NCBI GenBank assembly: GCA_965214205.1
Contig: OZ243941.1
Location: 1,132,515 to 1,196,514, forward strand
DNA: 64,000 nucleotides
Source of the DNA: Candidatus Poriferihabitaceae bacterium
GTDB taxonomy: Bacteria > Pseudomonadota > Gammaproteobacteria > Arenicellales > Poriferihabitantaceae
Reading direction: 5' to 3'
Part shown: positions 2,943-36,686 of the stretch, piece after piece
Position numbering within the stretch: position 1 is the first letter of the stretch
Layout: each line of letters opens with the position of its first letter
Made by a program: the position numbers and the translations under genes
Notes under the pieces: generated by a model
What the model was told of the DNA's origin: nothing
Databases searched by the model: none
The model's input: the letters and a program-made list of their open reading frames with translations, nothing else

Positions 2943-2955
2943 AGGCCACCGGACT

Positions 2956-3963: not shown

Positions 3964-3978
3964 GACCGGACCATCGGG

Positions 3979-5572: not shown

Positions 5573-6296
5573 TGCCGTACATTTCGCCCAGACGCTGCGG
5601 GTCAATCCCGATCCAGAACAGAAACCTCAATTTCCACATCAGAAATATGGTTCGGATTGCGCCCCGGTTCTGCCATCGCCGGGCGGAAGTGATGACCGGA
5701 GGACTGATCAGCAGAGGGGAAGAGTGCTTTTTGAGCAGTTTGCTCATTGCGACATCTTCCATCAGACAGATTGGAGGGAAACCGTTGACCCGTTTGAACA
5801 GGGACGCGGTTACGAAAATCCCCTGATCCCCGGTGGCGAGGGGCCGGACACGGGAACGAATCCGGATCATGTTTTCGATCAGGCGGTAGATCCATCCTTT
5901 TGATTCGAGCGCCACGTCGAATCGCCCCCATTGACGTTGTCGGGTGACTTCCCGTTCCACCATGGCGATGGCATTGGCCGGCAATCGGGTATCGCAGTGA
6001 AGAAACAACAGAATGTCACCGGTAGCCGCCCTGGCTCCCAGGTTCATTTGCCGGCTTCGTCCGGGCTGATCCGTTGAAATGATCCGGATCAAGGGCTTCC
6101 CCGGTTCGTGTTGGCAGCGCCGGTCAATGGATTCCGGGATGGATTCCAGGATCGACTCCAGGATTTCCCAGGATTCGTCCTGATCGCTGGCATCGACCAG
6201 TATGGCCTCATGCAGCCCGCGCAAGTCCCGCAAATGTTCCACCAGACCTTCGACGTTTTGTCCTTCGTTATAAAGGGGAGCGACAATCGAGATCAT
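5562..6296 (-). CDS. Family-2 glycosyltransferase, TIGR04283-type (rSAM/selenodomain-associated transferase 2 family)
   Basis: 244 aa with ISIVAPLYNEG...LVDASDQD...GRSRQMNLGARAATGDILLFLHCDTRLP...ARRWQ, the usual partner of the DUF2064 protein. Confidence 0.75.
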   Translation of the reverse strand: MISIVAPLYNEGQNVEGLVEHLRDLRGLHEAILVDASDQDESWEILESILESIPESIDRRCQHEPGKPLIRIISTDQPGRSRQMNLGARAATGDILLFLHCDTRLPANAIAMVEREVTRQRQWGRFDVALESKGWIYRLIENMIRIRSRVRPLATGDQGIFVTASLFKRVNGFPPICLMEDVAMSKLLKKHSSPLLISPPVITSARRWQNRGAIRTIFLMWKLRFLFWIGIDPQRLGEMYGNER

Positions 6297-6339
6297 GTCA
6301 ACGTTACTGAATCAGGCACACTGAAGCCGCGGCTGCGGA

Positions 6340-7551
6340 TTACTTTTTCCGGCTGGCGGCGATTCGCATCCGCAAGGCATTCAGTTTGATGAAGCCGGTT
6401 GCGTCAGCCTGGTTATAGGCGCCGGCATCCTCTTCGAAGGTCACAATTTTCTCGTCGAACAACGAATCGGTTTTTGACTGACGTCCCAGCACATCGACAT
6501 TGCCCTTGTACAAGCGCAGCCGGACCTCTCCGTTCACGGTCGCCTGGGAGGCGTCGATCATACCCTGCATCATGACCCGCTCCGGGCTGAACCAGTAACC
6601 GTTGTAGACCAGACTGGCATAGCGCGGCATCAGTTCGTCCTTCAGATGGGCTACCTCCCGGTCCACGGTGAGTGATTCGATCGCGCGATGGGCCTTATGG
6701 ATGATGGCGCCGCCCGGGGTTTCATAGCAGCCCCTGTTCTTCATGCCGACATACCGGTTTTCGACAATGTCCGCCCGGCCAATGCCGTGGAGCGACCCCC
6801 GTCTGTTCAAATCCACCATAACCTGCGCCGGAGTCAGCTCCTGGCCGTTGATCGACACGACATCTCCCTGCTTGAAGCCAAGCAGCAATTCTTCCGGCGC
6901 GTCCGGCGCGTCCATCGGAGAGTTGGTCCAGCCCCAGGCTTCATCACCGGGTGTTGTCCATGGGTCTTCCAGTTCCCCCCCCTCATGAGAGATATGCAAC
7001 AGATTCGCGTCAATCGAATAAGGGGAACCGCCGTCTTTTTTCTTCTCGATATGAATGCCATGCTTCTGCGCGTACTCCATCAGCTTTTCCCGGGAGGTCA
7101 GATTCCACTCTCGCCAGGGCGCGATGATCCGGATATCCGGGTTCAGGGCGTATGCGGACAACTCGAATCGGACCTGGTCGTTGCCTTTGCCGGTGGCGCC
7201 ATGCGAGATGGCGTCGGCATTGGTCTTGCGGGCGGTTTCAACCAGGTGTCTGGCGATCAGCGGACGGGCGATCGAGGTGCCCAGCAAGTATTCGCCTTCG
7301 TAGACCGCATTGGCGCGAAACATCGGGAAAACATAATCACGGGCGAATTCTTCGGTCAGGTCTTCGATGAATATATCCCGGATTCCATACTTTTGCGCTT
7401 TCTTGCGGGCCGGTTCGAGGTCTTCACCCTGACCGATATCCGCTGTGAAGGTGACCACCTCGCAGTGGTATTCATCCTGCAGCCATTTCAGGATGATTGA
7501 CGTATCCAGTCCTCCGGAATAGGCCAGAACAGCCTTGTTGATTTCTGACAT
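6340..7551 (-). CDS. argG: Argininosuccinate synthase
   Basis: 403 aa with [12 protein letters not shown] (ATP PPi-loop) and full-length ArgG similarity. Confidence 0.95.
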
Positions 7552-7628
7552 GGTTGTTTTCGTATTTTGGTAAGCTATCAGGTTTTATTATATCATTAAC
7601 CATGTAACCGTTTGAGAAGGACAGGCAA

Positions 7629-8537
7629 GTGGCAATTCGACATCTGTTAAGCTGTATGGATTTGACCGAACAAGAGCTTCGGCAATTGATTTCGCGGTCC
7701 ATTGAACTCAAGGCCGAGCTCCCCTCAGGCCGCCATACTCAATTCATGCAGGGCAAAACCGCGGTGCTGGTGTTCGAAAAACAGTCTACCCGTACCCGCG
7801 TCTCGTTTGAAACCGGCATCGGTCAATTCGGCGGGAACGCGATTTTCCTGTCGCCTTCCGACTCTCAACTGGGTCGCGGAGAGTCGATAGCGGACACGGC
7901 ACGGGTGCTTTCCAGAATGGCTGATCTGATCGTCATGCGAACCGGAGCGCACGCGCGCGTTGAGACGATGGCGGAAAACGCCTCGGTGCCGGTAATCAAC
8001 GGATTATCCGACTACAATCATCCCTGCCAGATTCTCGCGGATATCCAGACATTTACCGAACATCGCGGAGATATCGGGGGCCGCAAGATCGCCTGGGTCG
8101 GTGATGGCAACAACGTGTGTCATTCGTGGATGAACGCGGCCCGGCAATTCGGTTTCGAACTGCACATTGCCACACCGAAAAATCAGCGGCCTGACGAGGC
8201 GCTGGCGATACAATGCGCGGACCATATCGTCCTGACCGAAGACCCGGTGGAGGCTTGCGCCGACGCGGCGTTGGTGGTTACCGATACCTGGTCCGGAATG
8301 GGCTATGAAAAGGAAAAGAAATTTCGTGAGAAAATATTCAAAGGTTACTGCGTTGATCAGAAATTGATGGAGTGCGCGGCCAACGACGCGCTGTTCATGC
8401 ACTGCCTGCCGGCCTATCGCGGCAGTGAAGTGACCGCGGAAGTGATCGACGGCCCGCAAAGCGTAGTCTGGGACGAAGCGGAAAACCGCCTGCACGCGCA
8501 AAAGGCGCTGATCGAATTTTTATTGTCGGGGGATTAA
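7629..8537 (+). CDS. argF: Ornithine carbamoyltransferase
   Basis: 302 aa with GTG start. Carries the STRTR carbamoyl-phosphate motif, HPCQ and HCLPA motifs. Divergent from argG. Confidence 0.95.
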   Translation: MAIRHLLSCMDLTEQELRQLISRSIELKAELPSGRHTQFMQGKTAVLVFEKQSTRTRVSFETGIGQFGGNAIFLSPSDSQLGRGESIADTARVLSRMADLIVMRTGAHARVETMAENASVPVINGLSDYNHPCQILADIQTFTEHRGDIGGRKIAWVGDGNNVCHSWMNAARQFGFELHIATPKNQRPDEALAIQCADHIVLTEDPVEACADAALVVTDTWSGMGYEKEKKFREKIFKGYCVDQKLMECAANDALFMHCLPAYRGSEVTAEVIDGPQSVVWDEAENRLHAQKALIEFLLSGD

Positions 8538-19847: not shown

Positions 19848-20312
19848 TCAGATCAGCCAGCCTTGCGGGGTGCGTACATACAGAAGTTTCCAGAACAGAC
19901 CGTAAAGCGTCAGCATGAGGAGAAGGCCAATCACGGATTTGTATAACAGAGCCTTGTAATCATTCCATTTGCGGTTGCCGTAAATGAGGACAATACACAG
20001 AAAAGCCAGGAAAGATCCGACGTAAAACCCGATGGTCTCAATCAAGAGAACAAAAACTATCGTGACCGCCAGTCCGGGCAACAGGGCTGGCCAGGCGATT
20101 ACCCCCCCGTCTGGCTTTTGTGATGGTTTCGCTTGTTCTTTTATGGTCTTGATCAACTGGACCAGACACAGCGCAAGCATGATAACCGCCAGTATCCTCG
20201 GGAACAGATAGACCTCCGGGTCCGCATCCCAGAAACAGGCGACTGCAAATATGACTGCGGCGGTTAACGCAAATATCGTCGCCTTCGTTTCAGTGTTGTT
20301 GATATGCAGCAT
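19848..20312 (-). CDS. tctB: Tripartite tricarboxylate transporter small membrane protein TctB
   Basis: 154 aa with four TM segments, located between tctA and tctC. Confidence 0.7.
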   Translation of the reverse strand: MLHINNTETKATIFALTAAVIFAVACFWDADPEVYLFPRILAVIMLALCLVQLIKTIKEQAKPSQKPDGGVIAWPALLPGLAVTIVFVLLIETIGFYVGSFLAFLCIVLIYGNRKWNDYKALLYKSVIGLLLMLTLYGLFWKLLYVRTPQGWLI

Positions 20313-20316
20313 GATT

Positions 20317-21807
20317 TCAACCCTTGTTCACGTTACGGCGGCCGCTGTAGACGCTATAGGCGATGGATATGAAGCACAGCGAGATCAGCGTGATATTGAT
20401 CGGGCCGCTGGTGAAATAACTGAATACTCCGTCTCCACTTTCACCGATCAATTTGCCTTGCAGGAAATTATCTTCCGCGATCGGCCCCAGAATGATACCG
20501 AGCACCAGCGGCGCCGGACCGAAACCGAATTTACTGGCAAAATACATCAGCATTCCCAACGACATCATGATCAACACATCGGAATAGCTGGACTGGATAC
20601 TATAGGTGCCGAAGACCGACAGAATCAATATGACCGCCGCCATATAGTGTCCGGGGACCTTCATGATCCAGCCGCTATGCTGGCTCAGAAACAGGCCGAT
20701 TACCAGCATCAGCGCCTGCGCCACCAGCAACGAATTGATAAAGGTCCAGGTCACTTCCGCATGAATGGTAAACAGGTCCGGTCCCGGGAACAGCCCATGG
20801 ATCAACAGGCCGCCCAAAAGCACAGCGGCGGTCGGACTGCCGGGTATGCTCAGGGTCAGGAGCGGCACCAGGGAAGGGCCAACCATCGCGTTATTCGCCG
20901 ATTCAGCCGCGATAATTCCATCCGGCTCGCCCTGCCCGTAAGTACTGGGATCCTTACTGGTCTTTTTGACTTGATCGTAGGCGACCAGTCCCGCAATCTG
21001 TCCACCGGCGCCGGGAATAATGCCGATAATGGTTCCGATTGCCGAGCCGATACCCAGGGCTCTGAACCGGCGCAGATTATAGGCGACCGACTTGAACAGG
21101 CGTGATTCCCCCAAGGCGTAGATACTGGCTGTCTTGTCCGCCATCGCCTGTTCCATCAGGGTGAAGACCTGGGGGACGGCAAACAGTCCGATCAGCGCCG
21201 CGACGATATGAACACCACTTTCGAGATGTTCGGAAACCACGAACCGCTCCTCTCCGAGCATTGGGTTGTCGCCGATGGTGGATAATGACAGTCCGAATAA
21301 TCCGGCAAGCAGCCCCTTGACCACCGAGGAACTGCCTATTGTCCCGATAATCGTGACTCCAAGAATCGCGATCCAGAACAATTCGGTCGGCCCGAATTTC
21401 AGGGCCAGTTGGGCAAGCGGAGGGGTAAAGAATATCAGGACGAAAATTCCAATCACGCCCCCTATGAACGAACTGGTGAAGCAATAGTGCAGCGCCTCTG
21501 TCGCTCTTCCGGCCCTGGCCAGTTGATGGCCGTCCAGAGCCGTCGCAATATTCGCCGGGGCGCCGGGGACATTGACCAGAATGGCGCTGATTGCGCCGCC
21601 GGCGACGGTCGCCGTATACATCGCGCCCAGCAGAATCAGCCCGGCGGCGGGCTGCATGTGGAAGGTGAACGGAATCATCAAGGCCACCGCCATGGTTGGA
21701 CTGAGGCCGGGCAACGCGCCCAGTATCAGCCCCGCCAGAGTCCCCCCGACCAGCAATGCGATATGATAGAGGGTAAAGACCTTATCGAAGTGAAGCAGGA
21801 ATTCCAT
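20317..21807 (-). CDS. tctA: Tripartite tricarboxylate transporter large permease TctA
   Basis: 496 aa and highly hydrophobic, with GALPGLSPTMAVALMIPFTF and IPGSPTAAVLLGGL motifs of the TctA family. Confidence 0.9.
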   Translation of the reverse strand: MEFLLHFDKVFTLYHIALLVGGTLAGLILGALPGLSPTMAVALMIPFTFHMQPAAGLILLGAMYTATVAGGAISAILVNVPGAPANIATALDGHQLARAGRATEALHYCFTSSFIGGVIGIFVLIFFTPPLAQLALKFGPTELFWIAILGVTIIGTIGSSSVVKGLLAGLFGLSLSTIGDNPMLGEERFVVSEHLESGVHIVAALIGLFAVPQVFTLMEQAMADKTASIYALGESRLFKSVAYNLRRFRALGIGSAIGTIIGIIPGAGGQIAGLVAYDQVKKTSKDPSTYGQGEPDGIIAAESANNAMVGPSLVPLLTLSIPGSPTAAVLLGGLLIHGLFPGPDLFTIHAEVTWTFINSLLVAQALMLVIGLFLSQHSGWIMKVPGHYMAAVILILSVFGTYSIQSSYSDVLIMMSLGMLMYFASKFGFGPAPLVLGIILGPIAEDNFLQGKLIGESGDGVFSYFTSGPINITLISLCFISIAYSVYSGRRNVNKG

Positions 21808-21922
21808 CGTGTTTGGCCGGGCTTACTCCAGGTTCGTTACGGTATGGTTAGTGTACAAACTATTTTCAATATAAACAGCCGGGCGTGTCAACTGATTTCT
21901 TGTATCAACCCGCAAACCCACT

Positions 21923-21936
21923 TGACAGGCGATGAC
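21923..21936. repeat. Left copy of exact 14-bp direct repeat TGACAGGCGATGAC
   Basis: Read directly. An identical 14-mer lies at 27956-27969. Confidence 0.9.
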
Positions 21937-22032
21937 CCCTCAAAGTACATTCATACCCCCTCAATATCCGGCAAAAAGCAGGTTAACGATAGTGAAAAAA
22001 ACCCCGATAAATTCGATTAAGTCCTTGATTTA

Positions 22033-22041
22033 TGGTATAAT
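22033..22041 (+). promoter_or_regulatory. Extended -10 promoter element TGgTATAAT
   Basis: Exact TG-n-TATAAT (TATAAT at 22036-22041). There is no convincing -35, which extended -10 promoters tolerate. Oriented toward the autotransporter gene; function is inferred. Confidence 0.4.
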
Positions 22042-22076
22042 TGCCGGATTGCCGGATTGCCGGATTGCCGGATTGC
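22040..22076. repeat. Octanucleotide tandem repeat (ATTGCCGG) x4 plus ATTGC
   Basis: Read directly: ATTGCCGG ATTGCCGG ATTGCCGG ATTGCCGG ATTGC with no mismatches. Equivalent phasing is TTGCCGGA x4 from 22041. Confidence 0.95.
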
Positions 22077-25000
22077 GCTTCGTGCGTCTTCATGGTGGTG
22101 GCGCCTAAGACGCCCTGTCTCCCGGCCTGAGCCTTCCGCCAGCGCCGCCCGCCATCTGCGCCGCCGCCTGGCCGCGGCGCTTCTCGCCCTGCCGCTCCTT
22201 GGCCTTGCCGCTCCGGTCGCCGCACAGACGATCGACTCCACGGAGATCACCGAAGGCGAGACCAAAACTTTTACCGTCACCATCCCATCATCCTGGACTG
22301 TCGACCATTTTAGTGACATAACTGCACAGACTGATGGGGTTGAGGAATGCTTCTTGACAATTACCCCGGGGCTCGTGCCCAGCGACTGGGATGCTTGTGA
22401 AGACTCTGACGCAGCCAGCTATAACTCAAACACTCGAGTCTATACATTTGAACTGCAGGCCCGTGCAGACTCAGTCAACGACCCGAATGAAACGGTCACA
22501 TACACTTTCTTTGATGCCGACGAGACTACGCGCCGTGCCACCTTCACCATCACGATCCGGGAAGCGCAAGTCACTCCCGTCACCCCCATAACCAAGGCCA
22601 CCCGGTTTCTCTCGCTCTCGTTGGACCGGGGCAAGGACACCTGCTCTGTGGGAGGAGGCAGCAGTAAAACGTACACCTGCGTGAAGGAGACAGATTCAGC
22701 GCCGAAGAATGTGGAGTTCCAGGTCAAGACCGACCAGATCTCTTCATCGGCCCTGCCCTTCCGCCTGTGCTTCTCCGGTAGCGCCACGCAACGCACCGGC
22801 GGCAATGCCGAGCAAGACGACTATCTGATACAGGAACAGGTGGGTAGCGCCTGGCAGACCAGAAACAATAGCTGCGTCGATTCGTCCATCGCCGCCAACC
22901 AGCAACTAAAGAGGTTCCGTGTCCAGGTGCTGGGAGACAACCACTACGAGGAGGTTCCGATGTGGGTCAACGGCCAGCAGCGGATGGTGATATCGGGACA
23001 GGAAACGGTCAATATCACACTGAATCCGAATCCGGGAAATCCGCTCCCTTCACCCTACAAGATCGACAGTGTGTTCAGCATCAAGACCCTGGTGATTGAC
23101 GACGACGATTATCACCAGCAGCCACTTGCCTTCGGAACCTGGGCCGGACAACCGGGCGTGAAAGAAGGCAGACCGTCCGCCGATCAGAATGTCGGCATCC
23201 CGTTCTCGGCGCAGGCTGGCTGGGATGAAAAGGTGACCTACCGGGTGGTGCCCGGCAGTGAGAGCGGCGGCAGCACGGCCATATATGGCGCCGACTACCG
23301 CCTGCGCGGCGGCTATAACCGGAACACCAACCGGGGCACGATGACGCTGCCGAAGGGGAAGACGCTTGCGACTCTGCCGGTCACAGTCATCGAGGACTCA
23401 CTGATCGAGGGCACCGAGACGGTGGTACTGGAGATGGTATCCATGGGAACCTACTCAGTGGGCTCACCGAACCGGATCACGGTACACATCCAGGACGACG
23501 AAGCGAGACCTCTGCTCAAGGTCGACGAACTCGGCAAGGCGCTGAGAGACGGAGTCGATAGCAGTCATCGGATCAAGATGGCGCTGACTCCTGCACATAG
23601 CTCGATACCCGATCGGCCACTGACAGTGGATGCGCATTTCGAGTATTGCGTGACGGGCTCGGCGACGCTCGGCGACGACTACGAGTTGGTACGCCCGGAC
23701 GGCGCTTATGTCACGACGGGCTGTCACCTCGCGACGCTGCCGAAGGGGCAACTCAGCACCTACCTCGATCTCAAGCTGTTCGACGACGGCAGCTCAGATG
23801 AACCGGACGAGTCGGTGAAAATCCGGCTACAGAAAAGTACTGTGTCGGGCAAGGAGACCACCGACCTGCTGGAAATCCCGGACTCGACTCGCATTGCCGA
23901 CGAGACCATCAGCACGGTCATCACCATCAAGGACGACCTGCCCGTTCTGAAGGTGTCGGGGCGTGATGACACGTCGAAGCACGACCGCCGGTTCCGCGCG
24001 ATATACACCATCCGCTCGGTCAATGGCGGCCTGACTGACGGTCTCTATGTCAAGTGGCAGGTCGAGGACACCGGCGGAGTGGTCGACGGCAACCGCAAAC
24101 AGGGATTGGGCAAGTCCGGCTACAAGACACTCAACAGGGGTTTCTCCGAGTTCACGGTGCCCATCAGTCTCCATCATGACGCCGGAGCCGGCAGCGTGAC
24201 CTTTCATCTGATGTCCGCCGGCCGTCCGTTCCGGCTGGCTCCGGGCAGCCACTGCGTGCGGATCAATGGTGGGCTATGCCCTGTGGGCAGCAACGCACCC
24301 GCCATTCAGCATGATGCCCAGAGCGCTCCGGCCCAGCAGGACGAGGCGCAAGCCGCGCCGATTGAGACCCCGGTCTGCGTCTCCGACGCCCTGCTTGCCG
24401 ACGCCCAGTTGGCTACGACCGAGACCTGGCGGACTTCGCCGGGCCATGTTGAGCGCTGGAGCCGGGTGCTTGCGGCCTTCGGGGAGAGCAACGGCTACAG
24501 CCCGATGACCATCGCCGAGGCGCAGGCGCAAGCGGATCGGGGCCTGAAGCGCTGGGCGCCGGTGGCGCCGGCGCTGGAATGCCTGGCGAACCCGCCGCAG
24601 GAGGAACAGCCGAAAGCGCAAGAAGAAAAAACCATTACGCCACCGGCTGTACCGGAACTCAGCCTCTCATCGGGTTCTGCCGTAGAGGAGGGCAGTCCTG
24701 CATCATTCACCGTCACCGCAGATAGCGCTGTGCAATCTGATCTGGCCATTGCCTATACAGTGAGCCAGAATGGAGACTATCTGGACGCCCCCGGCAGTGG
24801 ACAAAGAACCGTCACCCTGGCGGCGGGAGCGACGACTGTTTCGCTCTTGATTGGTACAGTAGACGATGCTCTGGATGAAGCGGATGGTTCAGTGACGGTC
24901 ACAGTAGATACCCGTACCGGCTATACAATCGCAACCAATAAGGACACCGCATCCATCCCGGTGCGCGACAATGACGAGCCGGTCGTGCGGATTACCGCAG

Positions 25001-27201
25001 GCAGTGGCGTAACGGAAGGAGATGCAGCCTCCTTTACCGTATCCGCTGATCCACTACCCGCCGCGCCGCTGGATATTACAGTAACTGTGGCCCAGAGCGG
25101 AGAGTTTGCCGACAGTGGAGAAACCGGCGCACGGACCCTCACCCTCCCGGTCACGGGTAGCGCCACCTTCACGGTCGCCACCCTGGACGACTCGGTAGAC
25201 GAGCCGGACGGTTCCGTCACCGCCACCATAGATACCGGCACGGGTTACCTGGTGGCAGTGCCACCGGATGATAGCGCTCTGGTGGCGGTGTCTGACAATG
25301 ATGCGGCGGCCTCGGGACCGACGCTCTCGATTGCCGATGCCACCATGAAGGAGAACCAGCGCAACGGGTATTTCAAGGTGACGCTGAGCGAGAAGGTGGC
25401 CTGGCCGGTCCATGTCTACTATGCGACACGGGATTCGACCCCGGTCTCGGCCGTGGCGGGCCAGGACTATCTGGCGTGGCGGCGGTCCTGGCAACTGCGG
25501 GCCCGGTTCCAACCGGGCCAGACCGAGACGCAGATCCATGTCCCCCTCTACAACGACAGCCATGACGAGGATCCGGAGACCTTCGAGATGGTGCTGTTCG
25601 ATGCCGGCGTGAACGGCCCGCCCGGTGTGTCGGTGTCGATTGCGGACGGGGTTGCGGTGGGCACCATTACCAACTCGGACCCGATGCCGGCGGCGTGGCT
25701 CAGCCGATTCGGTCGCACGATTGCCCAACAAGCCATTGATGGACTCTCTGACCGCATCGCAGACCGCCGTGCCGCCGGAATGCAAGGCACAGTAGCCGGA
25801 CAAGCCTTTACGCTGGGTAGCCGTCCATCAGAATCTGTCCTGTCCAGTACCCATTCGATGGAATACGACTCCGCTCACTCCACCGAACAGGTACATGACC
25901 GGCATCACTTCGGCGGCACACAGAGTCAGTCTTATGATATGACAGTACGAGAAGCCTTACTGAACAGCTCCTTTACGGCCACGAGTGAGAAAGACGCGCA
26001 AGGCGGCAGTGTCTCCTTCTGGGGACGGGCCACACAAGGCAACTTCGATGGACGAGAAGGCGCCTTCTCATTAGACGGAGAGACCACCACTGCATTACTC
26101 GGCACAGACTATGCCAAAGACAACTGGCTGGTTGGACTGACCCTGATACAAAGTGATGGAGAAGGCAGCTATACCGATACCGATACCAGCAACCGGGTTC
26201 CTGAACAAATGTGTAACCAGGAGAACCTGCCCGCACAAGCCAGACAAGTCCTGTGCAATGGCGCGGTACGCGAAGGCGATGGAGAAGTCAAAGCCTCACT
26301 GACCGCCATTACGCCCTATACTTCGATGCAAGTATCCGATTCTATCCAGCTATGGGGCACACTCGGACAGGGTAGTGGAGAAGTCACATTACAACCGGAA
26401 CTGGGTGATGTACTCACTTCTGACATGAGTTGGGACATGGTTGCCCTGGGAATGCGTGGAGATTTGTTAGAACAAGAACAGGGACTGTCTCTGGCGCTGA
26501 CTGCAGATGCCTTATGGTCTCGTACCCAATCAGACAAGACCCATCAACTGGCCGCCTCCGATGCCAGCAGTACCCGTATCCGGGCTGGACTGGAGAGTAG
26601 CTGGAAGAAGGATCTTGAAAACGGTCAACTTACGCCCCGACTGGAAGTGGGCATTCGACAGGATGGGGGAGATGCAGAGACCGGAACGGGGTTAGAGATA
26701 GGCGGTGGCATTGCATGGAATGACACAAACCTCGGACTCTCTCTTGATCTGTCGGGACGTACCCTGGTCTCGCATGATTCAGATGATCTCAAAGATCGGG
26801 GATATGGGGCATCGTTTGTGTTTGATCCACAACCCGATAGTCAACGGGGACTGTCTCTGACCGTCAATCAGGATTGGGGCGGGCAATCCAGTGGCGGACT
26901 GGATGCCTTGTTTGCAGAACCATCTATCAGTGAACGTACCGGCAGTGCATCAGAGAGTCGCTGGCATGCACAAGCGGCGTATGGTTTCTCTATGTTATCG
27001 GGAAGATTCACGGGCAGTCCATATCTGGACATGGGGATCACGGATAGTACGCATGAATATACGCTTGGCTGGCGACTGCAACCGGTGTATACCACCGGTC
27101 AGGCATTGAACTTCACGCTGGATATTCAGGCTACGCACCGGGAAACCGATGATAATGAACCTACACAGTTTGTGGGGGTGGAAGTGGGGGTTCGGTGGTG
27201 A
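22057..27201 (+). CDS. Type Va autotransporter outer-membrane protein with Calx-beta-rich passenger domain
   Basis: 1714 aa with a TTG start inside the repeat. Signal peptide RRRLAAALLALPLLGLAAPVAAQ. At least five Calx-beta-like acidic motifs (e.g. VIEDSLIEGTETVVLEM, YNDSHDEDPETFEMVLF). The C-terminal ~500 aa (from PAAWLSRFGRTIAQQ at ~25681) has amphipathic beta-strand periodicity and ends in VGVRW. Confidence 0.85.
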   Translation: MPDCRIALRASSWWWRLRRPVSRPEPSASAARHLRRRLAAALLALPLLGLAAPVAAQTIDSTEITEGETKTFTVTIPSSWTVDHFSDITAQTDGVEECFLTITPGLVPSDWDACEDSDAASYNSNTRVYTFELQARADSVNDPNETVTYTFFDADETTRRATFTITIREAQVTPVTPITKATRFLSLSLDRGKDTCSVGGGSSKTYTCVKETDSAPKNVEFQVKTDQISSSALPFRLCFSGSATQRTGGNAEQDDYLIQEQVGSAWQTRNNSCVDSSIAANQQLKRFRVQVLGDNHYEEVPMWVNGQQRMVISGQETVNITLNPNPGNPLPSPYKIDSVFSIKTLVIDDDDYHQQPLAFGTWAGQPGVKEGRPSADQNVGIPFSAQAGWDEKVTYRVVPGSESGGSTAIYGADYRLRGGYNRNTNRGTMTLPKGKTLATLPVTVIEDSLIEGTETVVLEMVSMGTYSVGSPNRITVHIQDDEARPLLKVDELGKALRDGVDSSHRIKMALTPAHSSIPDRPLTVDAHFEYCVTGSATLGDDYELVRPDGAYVTTGCHLATLPKGQLSTYLDLKLFDDGSSDEPDESVKIRLQKSTVSGKETTDLLEIPDSTRIADETISTVITIKDDLPVLKVSGRDDTSKHDRRFRAIYTIRSVNGGLTDGLYVKWQVEDTGGVVDGNRKQGLGKSGYKTLNRGFSEFTVPISLHHDAGAGSVTFHLMSAGRPFRLAPGSHCVRINGGLCPVGSNAPAIQHDAQSAPAQQDEAQAAPIETPVCVSDALLADAQLATTETWRTSPGHVERWSRVLAAFGESNGYSPMTIAEAQAQADRGLKRWAPVAPALECLANPPQEEQPKAQEEKTITPPAVPELSLSSGSAVEEGSPASFTVTADSAVQSDLAIAYTVSQNGDYLDAPGSGQRTVTLAAGATTVSLLIGTVDDALDEADGSVTVTVDTRTGYTIATNKDTASIPVRDNDEPVVRITAGSGVTEGDAASFTVSADPLPAAPLDITVTVAQSGEFADSGETGARTLTLPVTGSATFTVATLDDSVDEPDGSVTATIDTGTGYLVAVPPDDSALVAVSDNDAAASGPTLSIADATMKENQRNGYFKVTLSEKVAWPVHVYYATRDSTPVSAVAGQDYLAWRRSWQLRARFQPGQTETQIHVPLYNDSHDEDPETFEMVLFDAGVNGPPGVSVSIADGVAVGTITNSDPMPAAWLSRFGRTIAQQAIDGLSDRIADRRAAGMQGTVAGQAFTLGSRPSESVLSSTHSMEYDSAHSTEQVHDRHHFGGTQSQSYDMTVREALLNSSFTATSEKDAQGGSVSFWGRATQGNFDGREGAFSLDGETTTALLGTDYAKDNWLVGLTLIQSDGEGSYTDTDTSNRVPEQMCNQENLPAQARQVLCNGAVREGDGEVKASLTAITPYTSMQVSDSIQLWGTLGQGSGEVTLQPELGDVLTSDMSWDMVALGMRGDLLEQEQGLSLALTADALWSRTQSDKTHQLAASDASSTRIRAGLESSWKKDLENGQLTPRLEVGIRQDGGDAETGTGLEIGGGIAWNDTNLGLSLDLSGRTLVSHDSDDLKDRGYGASFVFDPQPDSQRGLSLTVNQDWGGQSSGGLDALFAEPSISERTGSASESRWHAQAAYGFSMLSGRFTGSPYLDMGITDSTHEYTLGWRLQPVYTTGQALNFTLDIQATHRETDDNEPTQFVGVEVGVRW

Positions 27202-27218
27202 TCATCTGAACAACGCTC

Positions 27219-27258
27219 TTGTAATATATTATAGTTGCTATATACTGAGTGTATATAG
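27219..27258 (+). promoter_or_regulatory. Candidate vapBC-2 promoter (TTGTAA-16 nt-TATACT) overlapped by inverted repeat CTATATAC-N5-GTATATAG
   Basis: Read directly: -35 at 27219-27224, -10 at 27241-27246, 8-bp IR arms at 27238-27245 and 27251-27258, ~18 nt before the GGGAGG SD of vapB. Type II TA operons are classically autoregulated at such palindromes. Confidence 0.45.
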
Positions 27259-27275
27259 TTAAGCGGGAGGTTTCA

Positions 27276-27509
27276 ATGGCTACTGGATCTGTATTCGTTA
27301 ACAATCGCACCCAAGCGGTCAGATTGCCCGCTGAGGCCCGTTTCCCCGACGGAGTGAAGAAAGTTACTGTCCGTATTGTTGGAAAGGATCGGGTGCTGTC
27401 TCCTGTAGATAGCTCCTGGGACAGTTTCTTTCTTTCTGATGATCAAGTGACCGATGATTTTATGGAAGAACGCGCTTCCCAGGATCAGTCTGAGCGAGAA
27501 GCTTTTTGA
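27276..27509 (+). CDS. vapB: Type II antitoxin VapB (AbrB/SpoVT-fold)
   Basis: Carries MATGSVFVNNRTQAVRLPAEARFP. I set the start at ATG 27276 (GGGAGG 6 nt upstream) rather than ORF-track 27249. Confidence 0.85.
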   Translation: MATGSVFVNNRTQAVRLPAEARFPDGVKKVTVRIVGKDRVLSPVDSSWDSFFLSDDQVTDDFMEERASQDQSEREAF

Positions 27510-27907
27510 TGTTGAAATACATGCTCGACACCAATATTGTCATTTATGTAATCAAGCGACGCCCACCGAAAGCGCTGGCAACTTTTAATCAGCATACTGG
27601 CCAACTTTGCATAAGCTCAATTACGTTGGCAGAACTGATGCATGGTGTAGAAAAAAGTACTAAACCTGATCATAATCTGCGGAAAGTCGAAAACTTTGTT
27701 TCTCGTATAACGGTGTTGGAATACGGCAATAAAGCCGCAGCCCATTACGGTGATATTCGGGCGTCGCTGGAACGTAAAGGTATGTCTATTGGTGTCAATG
27801 ACTTGCATATTGCTGGGCATGCGAGATGTGGAGGTTTGACGCTGGTGACGAATAACCTGCAAGAGTTCAAGCGCGTAGAAGGTCTGCGCCTTGATAACTG
27901 GGTTTAA
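27506..27907 (+). CDS. vapC: Type II toxin VapC (PIN-domain ribonuclease)
   Basis: 133 aa with MLDTNIVIY...SSITLAELMHG...LVTNNLQEFKRVEGL. Has a 4-bp overlap with vapB. Confidence 0.9.
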   Translation: MMLKYMLDTNIVIYVIKRRPPKALATFNQHTGQLCISSITLAELMHGVEKSTKPDHNLRKVENFVSRITVLEYGNKAAAHYGDIRASLERKGMSIGVNDLHIAGHARCGGLTLVTNNLQEFKRVEGLRLDNWV

Positions 27908-29868: not shown

Positions 29869-32298
29869 ATGAAACCTGAAGCGCAGGTAGTCGTAATTGG
29901 CGGTGGTCTGGTGGGTTGTAGCATCCTCTATCATCTGACCAGGCTGGGTTGGCGGGATGTGGTACTGCTTGAACGCGATGAATTGACTTCCGGTTCCACC
30001 TGGCACGCCGCGGCCGGAATACATGGTCTGCACGACAATAACAACGTGTCCAGAATGCAGTACTACACGATGAATCTGTACCGGCAGCTTGAAAAAGAGA
30101 CCGGTCAGTCCTGCGGCATCCATCAACCCGGTTCGATTTATCTGGCCTGTACCCGGGAACGGGTGCATCAACTCCGTATCCAGGCATCCAAGGCCAGCGC
30201 TTTCAATGCGGAGTTTTACGAGATATCGCCGCGCGAAATCCTCGATCTGAATCCGTTGCTGAATCTGGACAATGTGCTGTGTGCGATGTACGAACCTCTC
30301 GGAGGCCATGTCGATCCTTCCGGAGTGACGTATGCTTATGCCCGGGGCGCCCGGAACAACGGCGCCGGCATCCATCGGTTTACCCCGGTTATCGAAACCA
30401 ACCCGAACCCGGATGGAAGCTGGCAGGTGGTTACTCCCAAGGGCAATATTAAAGCCGATGTTGTGGTCAACGCCGCCGGCCTGTGGGGCCGGGAGGTGGC
30501 CGGACTGGCGGGAATCGATCTGCCTTTGATGCCCATGGAGCATCAGTATTTCGTGACCGAAGACATTCCCGAAATTGCCAGCCTGGACCGGGAGCTTCCG
30601 GCGGTGGCTGACCGGGACAATGAATACTATATGCGTCAGGAGGGCAAGGGGCTGCTGGTCGGGGCGTATGAAAAGGATGGACGATTCTGGTCGGAGAACG
30701 GCACGCCCGCCGATTTTGGTCACGATCTCTTACAGGAGGACCTGGATCGTATCGCGGACAATGTCATGCGCGCCTGTGACCGGGTCTCCGCGCTTGCAGA
30801 AGCCGGGATAAAAAGAGTGATCAATGGCCCCATGATCTGGTCACCGGATTCTTCCGCGTTGCTCGGTCCGGTGCGGGGACTGAAAAACTACTACGTCTGC
30901 AACGGCATTATTCCGGGTTTCAGCCAGAGCGCCGGTCTTGGTAAAACCCTGGCTGAATGGATTGTCGAGGGCGAACCGGAGCTGGATATGTTCGCGTGGG
31001 ATGTCGCCCGTTTTGGCCGGTGGGCGACCAAATCCTGGACTCGGGCGCGGGCGCTCGACAACTACAGCTCACGTTTCCGTATCCATTTCCCGAATGAAGA
31101 GCGCGATGCCGGCCGGCCGCTCAGGAAACGCCCCGTCCATGATCTGCAAAAGTCCATGGGCGCCGTATTCGGTCTTTCTTACGGCTGGGAGCATCCCCAA
31201 TGGTATGCGACAGGCGGTGTGCCGCAACAGGACGAGTTCAGTTTCGAGCGGCCCCGATGGTTCGATATCATGGGTCAGGAGGTTCGGTCCCTGAGAGAGT
31301 CCGTGGGGCTGGTCGATACCTCGAATTTCGCCAAGTACCGGATCACCGGGAAAAACGCTGTCGGCTGGCTGGACCGCATCATCGCGAATCATGTGCCCCG
31401 ACAAAACGGGCGGACCTGCCTGACCCCCCTGTTGAGCCTGAGGGCGGGATTGGCCGGAGATTTCACAGTTGCGCGTCTGTCGGACGAGTCGTTGTTCATG
31501 ATTGGGTCGGGCATCGCCGAGGATTACCATCTGCGGATTTTCGAGCGGTTCCTGCCAGCTCCGGGGGTTCACTTCGAGTGCGTGACCGACGCCATGACCG
31601 GATTCAACATTGCCGGGCCCAATGCCAGACAACTGTTCGAGGAGGTCACCGGCTGCGATTTTTCCAATGATTCCCTGGGTTTCATGCGTAACCGGGTGAT
31701 CGAAATCGACGGCTGTCAGGCGATCATATTGCGGGTTTCATTTACCGGGGACCTGGGTTTCGAGATTTATGTCAGCGAAGAAAACCAATTGTGGCTCTAT
31801 CAGTCCATTCTCGACAAGGGCGCCAAGTACGCGATTAGACCGATTGGCTCGCGCGCCCTGGGTTCGATGAGGATCGAGAAAGGTTACGGCAGTTGGGGGC
31901 GCGAATACTCGCCTGAATGGTCCCCGGTGGAATCCGGACTGGCGGCGCTGGTAAAAACCGATAAACCCGCGTTTCTGGGCCGGGACGCTTACCTGGCGAT
32001 TCGGGACCTGCCGCCAAAGCAGAGGCTTTGCTGCTTCACCATCGAATCGTCTCCCGGCCGCGAGGGGGCGGATGCCTGGGGCGGTGAAGCTATTTTCCAG
32101 TCCGGCAGATATGTCGGTCGAATCACTTCAGGATCGTACAGTTTTACATTCAATACCTCGGTGGCGCTGGGCTACGTTGATGCCGCCTTCGCCGTCCCCG
32201 GTGAAAAATTCGAGGTCGCGATACTGGGTATTCCTCATAAAGCCGAGCTGCTCCCCCGGCCGTTGTTCGACCCGAAGGGCGAGAAGCTCAGGGCCTGA
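29869..32298 (+). CDS. FAD-dependent oxidoreductase fused to GcvT-like folate-binding domain (dimethylglycine/sarcosine dehydrogenase family)
   Basis: 809 aa with an N-terminal VVVIGGGLVGCS dinucleotide fold (DAO domain) and a C-terminal ~400-aa aminomethyltransferase-like domain. Confidence 0.85.
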   Translation: MKPEAQVVVIGGGLVGCSILYHLTRLGWRDVVLLERDELTSGSTWHAAAGIHGLHDNNNVSRMQYYTMNLYRQLEKETGQSCGIHQPGSIYLACTRERVHQLRIQASKASAFNAEFYEISPREILDLNPLLNLDNVLCAMYEPLGGHVDPSGVTYAYARGARNNGAGIHRFTPVIETNPNPDGSWQVVTPKGNIKADVVVNAAGLWGREVAGLAGIDLPLMPMEHQYFVTEDIPEIASLDRELPAVADRDNEYYMRQEGKGLLVGAYEKDGRFWSENGTPADFGHDLLQEDLDRIADNVMRACDRVSALAEAGIKRVINGPMIWSPDSSALLGPVRGLKNYYVCNGIIPGFSQSAGLGKTLAEWIVEGEPELDMFAWDVARFGRWATKSWTRARALDNYSSRFRIHFPNEERDAGRPLRKRPVHDLQKSMGAVFGLSYGWEHPQWYATGGVPQQDEFSFERPRWFDIMGQEVRSLRESVGLVDTSNFAKYRITGKNAVGWLDRIIANHVPRQNGRTCLTPLLSLRAGLAGDFTVARLSDESLFMIGSGIAEDYHLRIFERFLPAPGVHFECVTDAMTGFNIAGPNARQLFEEVTGCDFSNDSLGFMRNRVIEIDGCQAIILRVSFTGDLGFEIYVSEENQLWLYQSILDKGAKYAIRPIGSRALGSMRIEKGYGSWGREYSPEWSPVESGLAALVKTDKPAFLGRDAYLAIRDLPPKQRLCCFTIESSPGREGADAWGGEAIFQSGRYVGRITSGSYSFTFNTSVALGYVDAAFAVPGEKFEVAILGIPHKAELLPRPLFDPKGEKLRA

Positions 32299-34025: not shown

Positions 34026-36686
34026 CTAAAAATGCAGGGACACATCACGATGTACGGAGCGACAGGCGGCTATCTGTTTGGCTCGGGCTTTTGTGAAACG
34101 GGGTTGCAAGCGGGCGCCTATGGAGCTTTTTATCGTGTTGTCGTAGTCTCGAAGCGCGGGCAGCAATGAGGATGCCTGATCTCTCCATTCGAGTTCTTGC
34201 GCAAACAGCGACAGGGCTTGCGCGTGATGCTGTTTTGCGGATTCGATATCCGGATTGTCTCCTTTCAACGCGCGCCTCGATTTCGAAAGCTGCGATTTGA
34301 TTTTGGAAACGCCGTCGAAATCGCCAAGCCGCGATTCGACCGATGTGATGGCTGCAATCGCTATGGCCGCCCGCTCGTTTTCGATTGATGAAGCCAGGTT
34401 CCGGATGGCGTTTTCCGTACCGGCCAGTTGCGTTTTCTGATCAAGCAGCCGCAACAGTTTTTGCAACGGTTCATAAGCTTCATCCGAGTTGCGGCGATAA
34501 TGGACTCTCGCGCTCTTTTCCGCTTTCGCGAGGTCCTTGTACTTTTGATTTTCCACCGGCCAGTCTGGCGGCAGACGGTCTTCCAGCATTTTACGTTCGA
34601 GTTCAAGTTCAGCCATTTCCGATTCAATGGATTCCAGCCGCTCGGGCTTGGCGTTGGCATTCCGTGACCATTGTCGGTGGTCGTCCTGCAGGGATTTCAT
34701 GCGGTCGTCAATACTCTGGATTCGAATGTTGAGTTGGCGCACTTCGCTGTGCAATGGCTTGTAATCCACTACAAACATCTCCAGGTCCGCCCCTGTCTCC
34801 CGTACATTCTTCACCAGATCGAAGGTATTTCCCGCCAGCCCGAAACTGTCGGTCAGGGAGTCCTGCCAGTCATCCGGCAGGGCGCGTAAATCCATCCCGC
34901 CAATCAGCGCCAGACCATCGAGTATTTCCGTTTCGCGTTCGTCGTATTCCCGGAAAACCTGTTCTTCGAGACAGTATTGCAACTTCGGGTTGACCGGAGG
35001 CGGCGCTGTTTCAGAGGTGAGGTAGGTGCGGGCCGGCATATAGTTGACCAGGCCGGGAGAGTAGCCGACGATGGCGAGTCCGACCAGTTGCAGTATGATG
35101 AACGCGACCGCGCCTTTATAGATCGCCGTGGTCTTGACAGTCGGTGGCGCCACGCCTCTCAGGTAAAACAGGGCAAAGCCGAACGGGGGGGTCAGGAAAG
35201 AGGTCTGAATGTTCAAGCCGATCATCACGCCCAGCCAGACCGCGGTGACATTGGCGGACGGTTCGGCCAACAGGATGGGCGCCACGATAGGAACAACGAC
35301 TACCGCGATTTCGATGAAGTCCAGGAAGAATCCAAGCAGGAATATGACCAGCATAACCACCAGGAACTGGGTCCAGAATCCGCCCGGCAATCCGGTCAGG
35401 AATTCCCGCACCAGATGCTCTCCTCCAAACCCCCGGAACGCCGCCGTCAGCATGGCCGCGCCGATCAGGATGATAAATACCATGGAGGTGGTCTTGGCGG
35501 TGTCGATCATCACACTGACCAGTGTGTCGTTTATTTTCCAGGTTCTCCAGGCGCTCCAGACCACGGCTCCGAGGCAGAAGATGACCGCGATGACCGCCAG
35601 AATAATGCCGAACTGATCTCTTCGATTAGTTATATTCTTTACATTGAGATCAAACAATTGCAGCAGGACCAGAAGACTCAAGGCGGAACCGATGAAAATA
35701 ATTAACGGCGTGTATCTGTTCGCGGGATCGTCCTTCAGCCGGTATCCGCCCATAACAATCGCGCCCACCGCGCCAATCGCGCCGGCCTGATTGACCGTAG
35801 CCACGCCGGTCACAATGGAACCGAGTACCGCAAAAATCAGAAAAAGGGGCGGCGCCAGGGAAATGGCGACCTTGCCGAAGAATTTCCGATCATATTCCCC
35901 ATCGTAGGGAATCGGCGGCGCCGTACCGGGCTTCAGGATTGCCTTGGCCAGAATGTACAACATGTACAACCCGACCAGAATCAGGCCGGGGATGAGCGCC
36001 CCCATGAACATATCCCCGGCGCTGGCCGAGACAATATCGAGTTCGGCGGGCATCGAAAATTCACCGGTCGCCTTTTTGTATTCTTGGGCTCTCAGGGTTC
36101 TTGCCTGGTCCGCCGCGTTGGCCAACTGGTCGGCCAGGATGATCAGTACAATCGAGGGGGGGATGATTTGTCCGAGGGTGCCTGAAGCGCAAATGGTTCC
36201 GGTGGCTATTGGCTGCGAGTAATTGTTGCGCAGCATGGCCGGCAATGAGATGAGTCCCATCGCAATCACGGTGGCGCCCAGAATGCCGGTTGTCGCAGCC
36301 AGCAACGCTCCAACGAAAACCACGGAAATTCCCAACCCGCCGGGCACCGGCCCGAATAATTGGGCCATCGCCACCAGCAGGTCTTCGGCGATTTTGGAGC
36401 GCTGCAGCATGATTCCCATGAACACGAATAAGGGAATTGCGATCAGCGTATCGCGCTCAACCTCCCAGTACAGGCTGCGAAAATTGGTCACTCCCGCTGT
36501 CAGCCACTGTACCGGGCCATCCTGGGCGAAATAGGCGCCCGGGTCTCCCGCGAACAGGTAACCGAAAATCGCGGCAAGACCAATCGCTCCAATGGCAGAG
36601 CCGGGCAAGGCGAAAGCCACCGGGAATCCCGAGCTCAATGAAATGATCATCAGGAGGATGAGAACTCCCAGGAAAACCAGTTCCAC
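34026..36686 (-). CDS. dctM: TRAP transporter large permease (DctM, COG4664-type) with 330-aa soluble C-terminal extension
   Basis: 886 aa with GTG start. Residues 1-~556 are a polytopic DctM core (FVFMGIMLQRS, GQIIPPSIVLII, TPPFGFALFYLRG). Residues ~557-886 (34029-35018) have no hydrophobic segment and are E/R/K/L/Q-rich. Confidence 0.85.
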   Translation of the reverse strand: MELVFLGVLILLMIISLSSGFPVAFALPGSAIGAIGLAAIFGYLFAGDPGAYFAQDGPVQWLTAGVTNFRSLYWEVERDTLIAIPLFVFMGIMLQRSKIAEDLLVAMAQLFGPVPGGLGISVVFVGALLAATTGILGATVIAMGLISLPAMLRNNYSQPIATGTICASGTLGQIIPPSIVLIILADQLANAADQARTLRAQEYKKATGEFSMPAELDIVSASAGDMFMGALIPGLILVGLYMLYILAKAILKPGTAPPIPYDGEYDRKFFGKVAISLAPPLFLIFAVLGSIVTGVATVNQAGAIGAVGAIVMGGYRLKDDPANRYTPLIIFIGSALSLLVLLQLFDLNVKNITNRRDQFGIILAVIAVIFCLGAVVWSAWRTWKINDTLVSVMIDTAKTTSMVFIILIGAAMLTAAFRGFGGEHLVREFLTGLPGGFWTQFLVVMLVIFLLGFFLDFIEIAVVVVPIVAPILLAEPSANVTAVWLGVMIGLNIQTSFLTPPFGFALFYLRGVAPPTVKTTAIYKGAVAFIILQLVGLAIVGYSPGLVNYMPARTYLTSETAPPPVNPKLQYCLEEQVFREYDERETEILDGLALIGGMDLRALPDDWQDSLTDSFGLAGNTFDLVKNVRETGADLEMFVVDYKPLHSEVRQLNIRIQSIDDRMKSLQDDHRQWSRNANAKPERLESIESEMAELELERKMLEDRLPPDWPVENQKYKDLAKAEKSARVHYRRNSDEAYEPLQKLLRLLDQKTQLAGTENAIRNLASSIENERAAIAIAAITSVESRLGDFDGVSKIKSQLSKSRRALKGDNPDIESAKQHHAQALSLFAQELEWRDQASSLLPALRDYDNTIKSSIGARLQPRFTKARAKQIAACRSVHRDVSLHF

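Follow-up and report, generated by a model that had tools for sequence, protein, structure and literature searches.

What can a simple-sequence repeat be doing when it adjoins a promoter-like hexamer and, at the same time, holds the only canonical start codon of a giant surface-protein gene? The question is raised by a locus of the window (the whole stretch of 64,000 nucleotides of contig OZ243941.1 analyzed here), in which a perfect tract of the octanucleotide ATTGCCGG, 4.6 units long, occupies positions 22040-22076 of the forward strand at the 5′ end of an open reading frame (ORF) of 1714 amino acids encoding a Calx-beta autotransporter (22057..27201). The reading favored here, to which a probability of about 45% is given, is that the tract is a variable simple-sequence repeat within a 5′ expression cassette common to a family of giant Calx-beta autotransporters in uncultured proteobacteria, that translation starts at a TTG of the tract, and that changes in unit number would result in graded output. 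Judged from the sequence, the tract is probably a mutational dial on the production of a surface protein, of the kind known from pathogens and here found in uncultured bacteria.

The octanucleotide tract and its unit number

A preliminary description of this DNA had placed a mismatch-free repeat directly against a TGgTATAAT box, and both Tandem Repeats Finder (period 8, 100% matches, 0 indels, score 74) and direct reading bear this out. Positions 22033-22076 read TGGTATAAT, then TGCCGG(ATTGCCGG)x3 ATTGC, and the candidate extended −10 box (TGgTATAAT, 22033..22041, forward strand; hereafter P2) shares its last two bases with the first two of repeat unit 1. Homologous hexamers adjoin the repeat in each of the relatives considered below (L001, L018, L059 and L089-L095). 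A pattern of two ATTGCCGG units has three overlapping matches in the 64 kb, all of them at this site, against 0.13 expected from shuffles, and three matches were reached in 0 of 100 shuffles. The box pattern TGNTATAAT occurs twice in the window against 0.71 occurrences expected, which on its own is not significant. Its other occurrence (TGATATAAT) lies at 7587-7595 on the minus strand, 36 nucleotides (nt) upstream of the ATG of an ORF at 7551..6340, a position consistent with the use of extended −10 promoters in this genome.

The placement of the tract differs from that of the promoter-spacer repeats of the porA, fim and hif type, located between −35 and −10 boxes, since it extends downstream from the 3′ end of the −10 hexamer. 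No Rfam family was matched at the tract region. Folding of 22040-22160 was no better than that of shuffles (z = −0.34) and gave only local CCGG:CCGG mini-hairpins within the tract; a long hairpin of the hmw1A type, in which the repeat pairs with a downstream complement, did not appear in it. A sigma-54 promoter (TGG...TTGC), considered by eye, was rejected: it requires 10 nt between GG and GC, where the window has 7 and L089 has 13.

Differences in unit number are most directly seen in the closest homologue of the autotransporter, P0002 (90% identity), which is encoded on ENA contig ERZ25070917:ctg123570 (L001) and preceded by an array of 7.6 units against the 4.6 of the window. Over 21913-22260 the two sequences are distinguished, apart from repeat length, by two substitutions in ~320 nt of flank and by one 12-nt in-frame indel; a three-unit change thus stands on an almost identical background. 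A scan for the ATTGCCGG octamer, covering one genome per species, returned 87 stretches, most of them unrelated, and among the 80 of these listed as loci only two represent the same cassette. In L018 (OZ244041.1, a metagenome-assembled genome (MAG) record titled Alphaproteobacteria bacterium) a TATAAT is fused to 11.25 units of ATTGCCGG, and in L059 (a MAG titled Defluviicoccus sp.) a TACAAT is fused to 4.0 units; the proteins encoded downstream have the extension or the Calx-beta repeats in common with the family. L005, with 2.6 units on the opposite strand within a coding gene, was rejected as a family allele. Scans of Joint Genome Institute (JGI) metagenomes with the 5′ junction GATTTATGGTATAATTGCCGG and with the passenger domain gave no further copies, and a protein search with the N-terminal 188 amino acids gave three matches and no new ATTGCCGG allele.

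Three features by which contingency loci are recognized are found together here. A perfect non-triplet repeat lies in the promoter region or 5′ end of a gene, its unit number differs between close copies with unchanged flanks, and the product is of the surface-exposed or host-interaction class, as indicated by its signal peptide, Calx-beta domain and PF03797 match. That the tract is a real, fast-changing simple-sequence repeat, and that the locus deserves the contingency-type label proposed in the preliminary description, is well supported by these comparisons: a single cassette occurs with 4.6, 7.6, 4.0 and 11.25 units, homologues carry other non-triplet repeats, and unit number across relatives is not invariant (4.0-11.25 for ATTGCCGG).

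Long perfect arrays of ATTGCCGG, comprising 10-16 units, also occur in contexts unlike the cassette. They are located in L009 (3514-3594, reverse strand), L013, L035 and L080, in Bdellovibrionales (OZ253553.1), Pseudomonadota, Deltaproteobacteria and Spirochaetaceae MAGs. A Vicinamibacterales MAG (SMAG_U1405) has at least six contigs (L008, L017, L024, L055, L070 and L071) with ATTGCCGG-like, partly degenerate clusters, which may form a dispersed repeat family.

A 5′ cassette and its start codons

The 5′ regions of seven further homologues, all from assembly ERZ25070917, complete a set of eleven homologous loci in which four unit types (ATTGCCGG, ATCGCCGG, CCGCCGAG and CCGAG) occur in 2-23 copies and all arrays are perfect. 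The ATCGCCGG unit is present 2 times in L090 (2970-2985), 5.6 times in L093 (2132-2176), 6.9 times in L092 (2028-2082) and 12.9 times in L091 (2147-2249); 11 copies of CCGCCGAG are found in L095 (1218-1305), and CCGAG is repeated 20.8 times in L089 (844-947) and 23 times in L094 (1227-1341). The layout is common to all: a −10-like hexamer is followed by a non-triplet repeat, one or more start codons, a pre-signal extension of ~25-55 codons and a Sec signal peptide. The repeat starts at most 5 nt from an xAxxAT hexamer, or overlaps the last bases of this hexamer, which across the family reads TATAAT, TACAAT, TATATC, GACCAT or GAGCAT. As this junction is kept in 11 of 11 loci, the fusion of −10 box and repeat pointed out in the preliminary description is conserved and is neither coincidence nor an accident of this window.

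A TTGACA or TTGACT is located upstream of the hexamer at 17 nt (L089, L091, L092 and L094), 20 nt (L095) or 23 nt (L018, L059, L090 and L093), the 23-nt spacing of the last four loci being a non-standard sigma-70 geometry. In L090, L093 and L018 the spacer between TTGACA and hexamer contains a palindrome (GGGGA.TCCCC-like), which in combination with the 23-nt spacing could represent an operator or a non-standard promoter. The cassette is found on otherwise different passenger domains. For example, L089 and L094 are 96% identical over ~600 nt and lose homology beyond, and the parts common to L091 and L092 are only the repeat with the extension and the C-terminus. The recurrence of the 5′ module on different passengers and in different genomic contexts suggests that it is selected.

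Another property of the arrays concerns the unit junctions of ATCGCCGG, each of which makes a GATC in L091, L092 and L093, so that strings of potential Dam sites lie just past the promoter. Such strings recall the Dam/OxyR control of the E. coli autotransporter Ag43; for the window, control of this type was rejected, the ATTGCCGG unit having no GATC.

The question of where translation begins can be approached from the window and from its relatives. In the window, the ORF frame is closed upstream by a TAA (22018..22020), and the TTG at 22057..22059, in unit 3, is the only in-frame ATG, GTG or TTG ahead of the signal peptide, the next one (TTG 22354) lying beyond it. Both points had been made in the preliminary description and are confirmed; the public gene call P0001, whose protein is identical, likewise begins at this proposed initiation codon. 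The TTGs of the tract, at 22041, 22049, 22057, 22065 and 22073, fall in frames 2, 1, 0, 2 and 1, and those out of frame run to a TAA (22106..22108, ending the frame of TTG 22049 and TTG 22073) or to a TGA (22128-30).

Relatives use three other starts, a point absent from the preliminary description. ATG-0 overlaps the hexamer (TATAATG) and reads in frame through the repeat in L091, L092, L093 and L095. ATG-1 (MSALAW...), located one base past the repeat in L090 and L093 and 30 nt past it in L059, is used in L093, L059, P0018, P0033 and P0123. ATG-2 (MAGRPGHP...), 14 nt beyond ATG-1 and in another frame, is used in L090/P0008 and in P0011. In the window the position of ATG-0 reads ATA (22037-22039), and that of ATG-1, identified from the DNA of L090, L093 and L059 and from the N-termini of P0018, P0033 and P0123, is an in-frame ATT at the start of the last partial unit (22072..22074). 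ATG-2 persists as an out-of-frame relic (22092..22130), the homologue of the P0008 and P0011 start, with 12 codons to the TGA at 22128-30, which is the conserved stop of one off-frame. The window ORF is in the ATG-1 frame, as IALRASSWWWRLRRPVSRPEPS aligns with MSALAWLCRLRRSASRPES of P0123. Since ATG-0, ATG-1 and ATG-2 are all unusable in the window, the repeat's own TTG is the likely start.

The distribution of starts over the family can be compared with this. Wherever the units hold no start codon, an in-frame ATG is always present at or just past the tract or, in L089 and L094, a TTG is present instead at its 5′ edge; an in-frame flanking ATG is absent from three of the four ATTGCCGG loci (window, L001 and L018). 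On balance, initiation at a tract TTG (22057) appears more probable than initiation elsewhere.

Start sites also vary independently of the repeat. TCCCGG follows ATG-2 at a distance of 27 nt in L090 and of 28 nt in the window and L093, and a 1-nt indel, GCTGGCCGCC versus GCTGCGCCGCC (L090 3001-3020 versus L093 2192-2212), sets whether ATG-1 or ATG-2 is in frame, thereby forming a second source of start-site variation. Three further readings were set aside. The in-frame position of ATG-0 was rejected as statistical evidence, both for ascertainment bias and for its out-of-frame position in L089 and L094; leaderless messenger RNA from the ATG-0 of relatives was rejected because TTGACA is ~8 nt too close; and an upstream in-frame ORF in L090 and L093 (MTIFKEG...) was rejected as coding, with ~9 non-synonymous versus 2 synonymous differences counted by eye.

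Downstream of the tract, the pre-signal extension (LRASSWWWRLRRPVSRPEPSASAARH, 22077..22155) leads into the core Sec signal peptide LRRR-LAAALLALPLLGLAAPVAA (22156..22224), with a predicted cleavage before the Q at 22225. The segment RRR-LAAALLALPLLGLAAPVAA followed by QT is read straight from the translation, and 56 residues are counted from TTG 22057 to the cleavage point. Extended signal peptides are common among autotransporters, and a length of 56 residues is within their range. From tract to signal peptide the ORF frame is free of stops in every locus. It is the only open frame of the extension in the window, with at least one stop in each off-frame, and across the loci the off-frames are nearly always stopped within ~10-20 codons (only one of 18 off-frame instances is open). 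The close homologues P0123, P0018 and P0033 have an ATG start exactly at the ATT of the window. In L001 the HLRR codons are missing, including the CTG at 22156, so that the sole alternative start near the signal peptide is gone together with the charged n-region, which weakens the case for a CTG start. By these signs the extension looks translated.

Promoters, registers and rival readings

The behavior of the tract under gain or loss of units was followed in a simulation of frame and register from 1.6 to 10.6 units. At any length of at least 2.6 units an in-frame TTG is present, and counted back from the 3′ end of the tract it is invariably the third; two statements of the preliminary description, namely this position and the absence of frameshifts upon unit gain or loss, therefore hold. 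As every unit carries a TTG, slippage never frameshifts the ORF. What changes is the distance between the in-frame TTG and the last base of TATAAT, which is 8 nt with 3.6, 6.6 and 9.6 units, 16 nt with 4.6, 7.6 and 10.6 units, and 24 nt with 5.6 and 8.6 units, a further in-frame TTG lying in this last case at offset 0, upstream of the predicted transcription start site (TSS). Among the ATTGCCGG loci, the window, L001 and L059 share an offset of 16, and L018 has 0/24. The register shared by the window and L001 was not retained as a sign of selection, L018 being in another one.

Transcription starts ~7 nt past a −10 hexamer. If this applies to the TATAAT of P2, the leaders would be ~1, 9 or 17 nt long in the three registers. 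Slippage associated with replication or transcription would add or remove 8-nt units, and with each step the in-frame position would pass to another TTG in the order read from the promoter. The in-frame TTG would then be preceded by none, one or two decoys, which would divert ribosomes to dead-end ORFs of 11-29 codons. Under such a scheme graded output is to be expected and not on/off switching. The sliding of promoter relative to start codon is plausible as a mechanism and depends on TGGTATAAT acting as a promoter. It may further be imagined, tentatively and with the odds against it, that these repeats are 'self-starting', with an initiation codon in every ATTGCCGG unit and slippage altering only register, decoy load and extension length; the unit would have evolved from ATCGCCGG, whose arrays in sister genes require a flanking in-frame ATG, and the cassette would be exchanged among passengers and genomes. 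If this were true, a gene once switched on and off would, through a single C-to-T change (ATCGCCGG to ATTGCCGG), become one that is either adjusted by degrees, as by a rheostat, or always on.

A number of observations weigh against initiation within the tract from the adjoining −10 box, and several of them feed rival explanations. Both hexamers of a promoter are matched in the region by P1 alone, a candidate sigma-70-like promoter TTGACA-N18-TACATT on the forward strand at 21922..21951 (10/12 in the promoter scan, predicted TSS at ~21958). The pattern TTGACA-N16-18-TAYAWT is unique in the 64-kb window (0.03 expected), and P1 is identical in L001 and lies 9 nt inside the boundary of the conserved module. 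With P1 as promoter, the tract would be located ~80-120 nt into the leader, its register to TATAAT would be irrelevant and copy number would carry little weight. The tract would then belong to a passive 5′ untranslated region (UTR) in which length drifts with little or no effect, and TATAAT would be an AU-rich patch or a remnant of TATAATG. This explanation is unlikely, though it deserves to be taken seriously. In its favor, besides P1, TGNTATAAT alone is statistically unremarkable; the two registers among ATTGCCGG loci give no sign that one is preferred, as expected if register is neutral; and a long leader would leave about one-third of the TTGs in frame at any copy number. However, an inert hexamer is hard to reconcile with a hexamer-repeat junction found in eleven loci with four different units, with TTGACA or TTGACT 17-23 nt upstream in several of them. 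The perfection of all arrays speaks for turnover that continues at a site maintained for it, and early stops are conserved in both off-frames. The second class of objections to the favored reading concerns initiation itself. TTG 22057 has only a GGA as Shine-Dalgarno-like element, and some other genes of the window have GGAG or GGAGG. In L089, L091 and L094, if TTGACA-N17-hexamer is the promoter, the predicted transcript has no canonical in-frame start before the mature protein, because the start site would be located downstream of both ATG-0 and the edge TTG; transcription from further upstream, unconventional initiation, or copies that are off are possible in these loci. An on/off frameshift switch as in opa, where only the fixed codon at the 5′ edge (TTG 22041) would initiate, the 4.6- and 7.6-unit alleles being OFF and a gain of one unit or a loss of two turning them ON, is improbable. 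This codon is homologous to the edge TTG of L089 and L094 and to the ATG-0 of relatives. The 5′-edge ATG is in frame with the ORF through the repeat in L091, L092, L093 and L095, the edge TTG is in frame in L089 and L094 at two different lengths, as is the first TTG of L018, and stops soon past the tract in both off-frames are typical of such switches. Nevertheless, the tract TTGs of the window share one sequence context and nothing marks out the first, which shares bases with the −10 hexamer and would precede a transcription start set by it. Two intact 5.1-kb ORFs at a ratio of non-synonymous to synonymous substitution rates (dN/dS) of 0.27 would both be silent, and the in-frame cases of ATG-0 owe their ascertainment in part to protein calls extending across the repeat. 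A fixed start upstream of the repeat, as in opa, is found in L091, L092 and L095; in the window no ATG, GTG or TTG lies between TAA 22018 and the tract.

The boundary of the translated region can be questioned as well. A start at CTG 22156 (MRRRLAAALL...), making repeat and extension an untranslated leader, has little probability. This position holds CTG in the window, L089, L094, L091 and L018 and GTG in L095, and TTG is read there in L090, L093 and L092; by eye, the starting ATG of P0004 aligns with it. A textbook short signal peptide would result each time from the TTG, GTG and ATG codons, and its use in some relatives is conceivable. The few substitutions between the extensions of L093 and L095 are all non-synonymous by eye; the extension thus displays no clear constraint at the protein level, which fits an untranslated leader. 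Against this stand the identity of the codon in the five loci with CTG, which is a very poor bacterial initiator, and the state of L001, where CTG 22156 and the following RR are missing and a signal peptide begun at the CTG that is left would lack a charged n-region. P0010 has an F at this position, the extension is open only in the ORF frame in essentially all loci, and homologues have in-frame ATGs at its start. More improbable still is a silent or decaying gene, in which the ancestral ATGs have been lost, the TTG is fortuitous and the repeat-length differences are neutral. It would account for ATG-0, ATG-1 and ATG-2 all being unusable and for the absence of a convincing Shine-Dalgarno element. 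The comparison of the window with L001 is relevant here too: the gene bodies, with a synonymous divergence (dS) of 0.18, a dN/dS of 0.27 and both 5.1-kb ORFs intact, bear the signature of purifying selection. The 5′ module is far more alike between the two than the gene body and may have been swapped recently, in which case dN/dS tells little about function under the exact start architecture of the window. The near-identical module could be recent, and purifying selection may then predate the present state. However, two independent 5.1-kb ORFs and L018 keep the ATG-less architecture with no frameshift or stop, the TTG-bearing unit replaces ATGs in a complementary pattern, and the 5′ module is found on different passengers in different genomic contexts.

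Related systems and genomic setting

Initiation within a variable tract may be set against several systems in which repeats control surface structures. In Neisseria opa, a (CTCTT)n repeat within the region encoding the signal peptide acts as an on/off frameshift switch. As in opa, the repeat of the window has a non-triplet unit, belongs to the gene of an outer-membrane protein, stands at its extreme 5′ end ahead of the hydrophobic signal-peptide core and is followed by off-frame stops; L091, L092 and L095, where an ATG is followed by an in-frame repeat, are organized as opa is. In contrast to opa, the window has no fixed start upstream, carries a TTG in each unit and has a unit of 8 nt instead of 5.

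In Haemophilus influenzae, (ATCTTTC)n repeats lie upstream of the adhesin genes hmw1A and hmw2A, and in biogroup aegyptius an octanucleotide, (GCATCATC)12-15, lies upstream of an adhesin gene (PMC2651432, PMC12721329). In hmw1A, transcription includes the repeat and is required for its changes in length, and expression varies by degrees instead of being switched on and off (PMC12721329). Repeats with an octanucleotide unit had already been reported close to hmw genes (PMC2651432), and the novelty claimed in the preliminary description does not extend to the octanucleotide unit; it stands for the geometry with a start codon in each unit, of which a limited literature search gave no description. 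Common to hmw and the window are a unit of 7-8 nt, a large adhesin gene and a position of the repeat in its promoter or 5′ UTR. Unlike the tract of the window, which holds the start codon and adjoins the −10 box, hmw repeats lie ~200 nt upstream of the start codon and act via a 5′ UTR hairpin cut by RNase III; HMW proteins, unlike autotransporters, use two-partner secretion.

H. influenzae lic1A reportedly has a (CAAT)n repeat with alternative ATGs in different frames (Weiser et al. 1989 being the work associated with it). Several potential starts in different frames relative to a non-triplet repeat, giving more than two expression states, are common to lic1A and the window, but the ATGs of lic1A lie upstream of the repeat whereas the TTGs of the window lie within every unit. 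In Moraxella catarrhalis, an (AGAT)n repeat in the 5′ UTR of uspA2, which encodes a trimeric autotransporter, modulates the level of expression. The likeness is that of a surface adhesin gene modulated by a repeat, placed in uspA2 between transcription start and start codon; unlike the tract of the window, the uspA2 repeat, also mentioned in PMC7302503, is well upstream of the start codon and has no initiation codon inside. In the trimeric autotransporter gene badE of Bartonella, A9 and G9 tracts are located just past the start codon (PMC11466379). Here the parallel is that badE, an adhesin gene of the autotransporter class in a host-associated bacterium, has its contingency repeat within the first few per cent of its length, and the difference is that badE has mononucleotide tracts and a classical frameshift, experimentally demonstrated.

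In a limited literature search, combined with general knowledge, no description was found of a non-triplet repeat with an initiation codon in each unit directly against a −10 box. To our knowledge, contingency loci based on repeats are textbook matter for a few human pathogens and hardly documented in uncultured environmental or host-associated bacteria. A hypervariable repeat is now seen at one 5′ position across a family of giant autotransporters, which is represented in a single metagenome assembly by several co-occurring genomes and outside it by at least two MAGs. This distribution points to stochastic control as a common feature of surface proteins in these communities. Should the start codon within a non-triplet repeat prove functional, it would represent a separate means of adjusting expression, as opposed to switching it. 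There are consequences for annotation as well, as gene callers mis-set or truncate these starts and assemblies collapse length heterogeneity. The public gene calls P0005, P0007 and P0029, for example, begin past the signal peptide and have mis-annotated starts.

The gene product has the two features of a type Va autotransporter, a C-terminal β-barrel and an N-terminal Sec signal peptide. The TTG-initiated ORF (forward strand, 22057..27201; PF03160 and PF03797; dN/dS against L001 as given above) encodes a Calx-beta domain at residues 1093-1184 (25333..25608; PF03160, E 7.9e-13) and a C-terminal autotransporter β-barrel region of approximate start (26017..27198), the protein ending in W. PF03797 scored 29.8 bits on the C-terminal 500 amino acids against a cut-off of 26 (E 6.6e-07) and was undetected in a whole-protein scan at E 1e-3. 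When the window and L001 are compared, identity is only 65% over the first 150 codons, with a dN/dS of 0.72, and 87-99% over the remainder, which suggests that the N-terminal passenger domain is mosaic and exchangeable.

The unit conserved between the two genomes is a module comprising the ORF and 144 nt upstream of it (21913..27203, forward strand). Comparison of the window with L001 by blastn gave alignments only at 21913-22300 and 22417-27203, and no homology in the flanks. Homology starts at CAAACCCACTTGACA and stops just past the stop codon, the equivalent region in L001 being 2857-8189. The neighbors of the module are TctA and a PIN toxin system in the window versus EamA and a short-chain dehydrogenase in L001. 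Directly downstream of the module in the window, a small ORF (27249-27509) overlaps a PIN-domain ORF (27506-27907) by 4 nt, and the pair at 27249-27907 looks like a VapBC-type toxin-antitoxin system. Elsewhere in the window, TctA/TctB, two TRAP large permeases and a protein resembling sarcosine oxidase, GcvT or DMSP demethylase are encoded at 19848-21807, 29869-32298, 34026-36650 and 52270-53715, a neighborhood of uptake and one-carbon/osmolyte genes typical of marine or host-associated heterotrophs.

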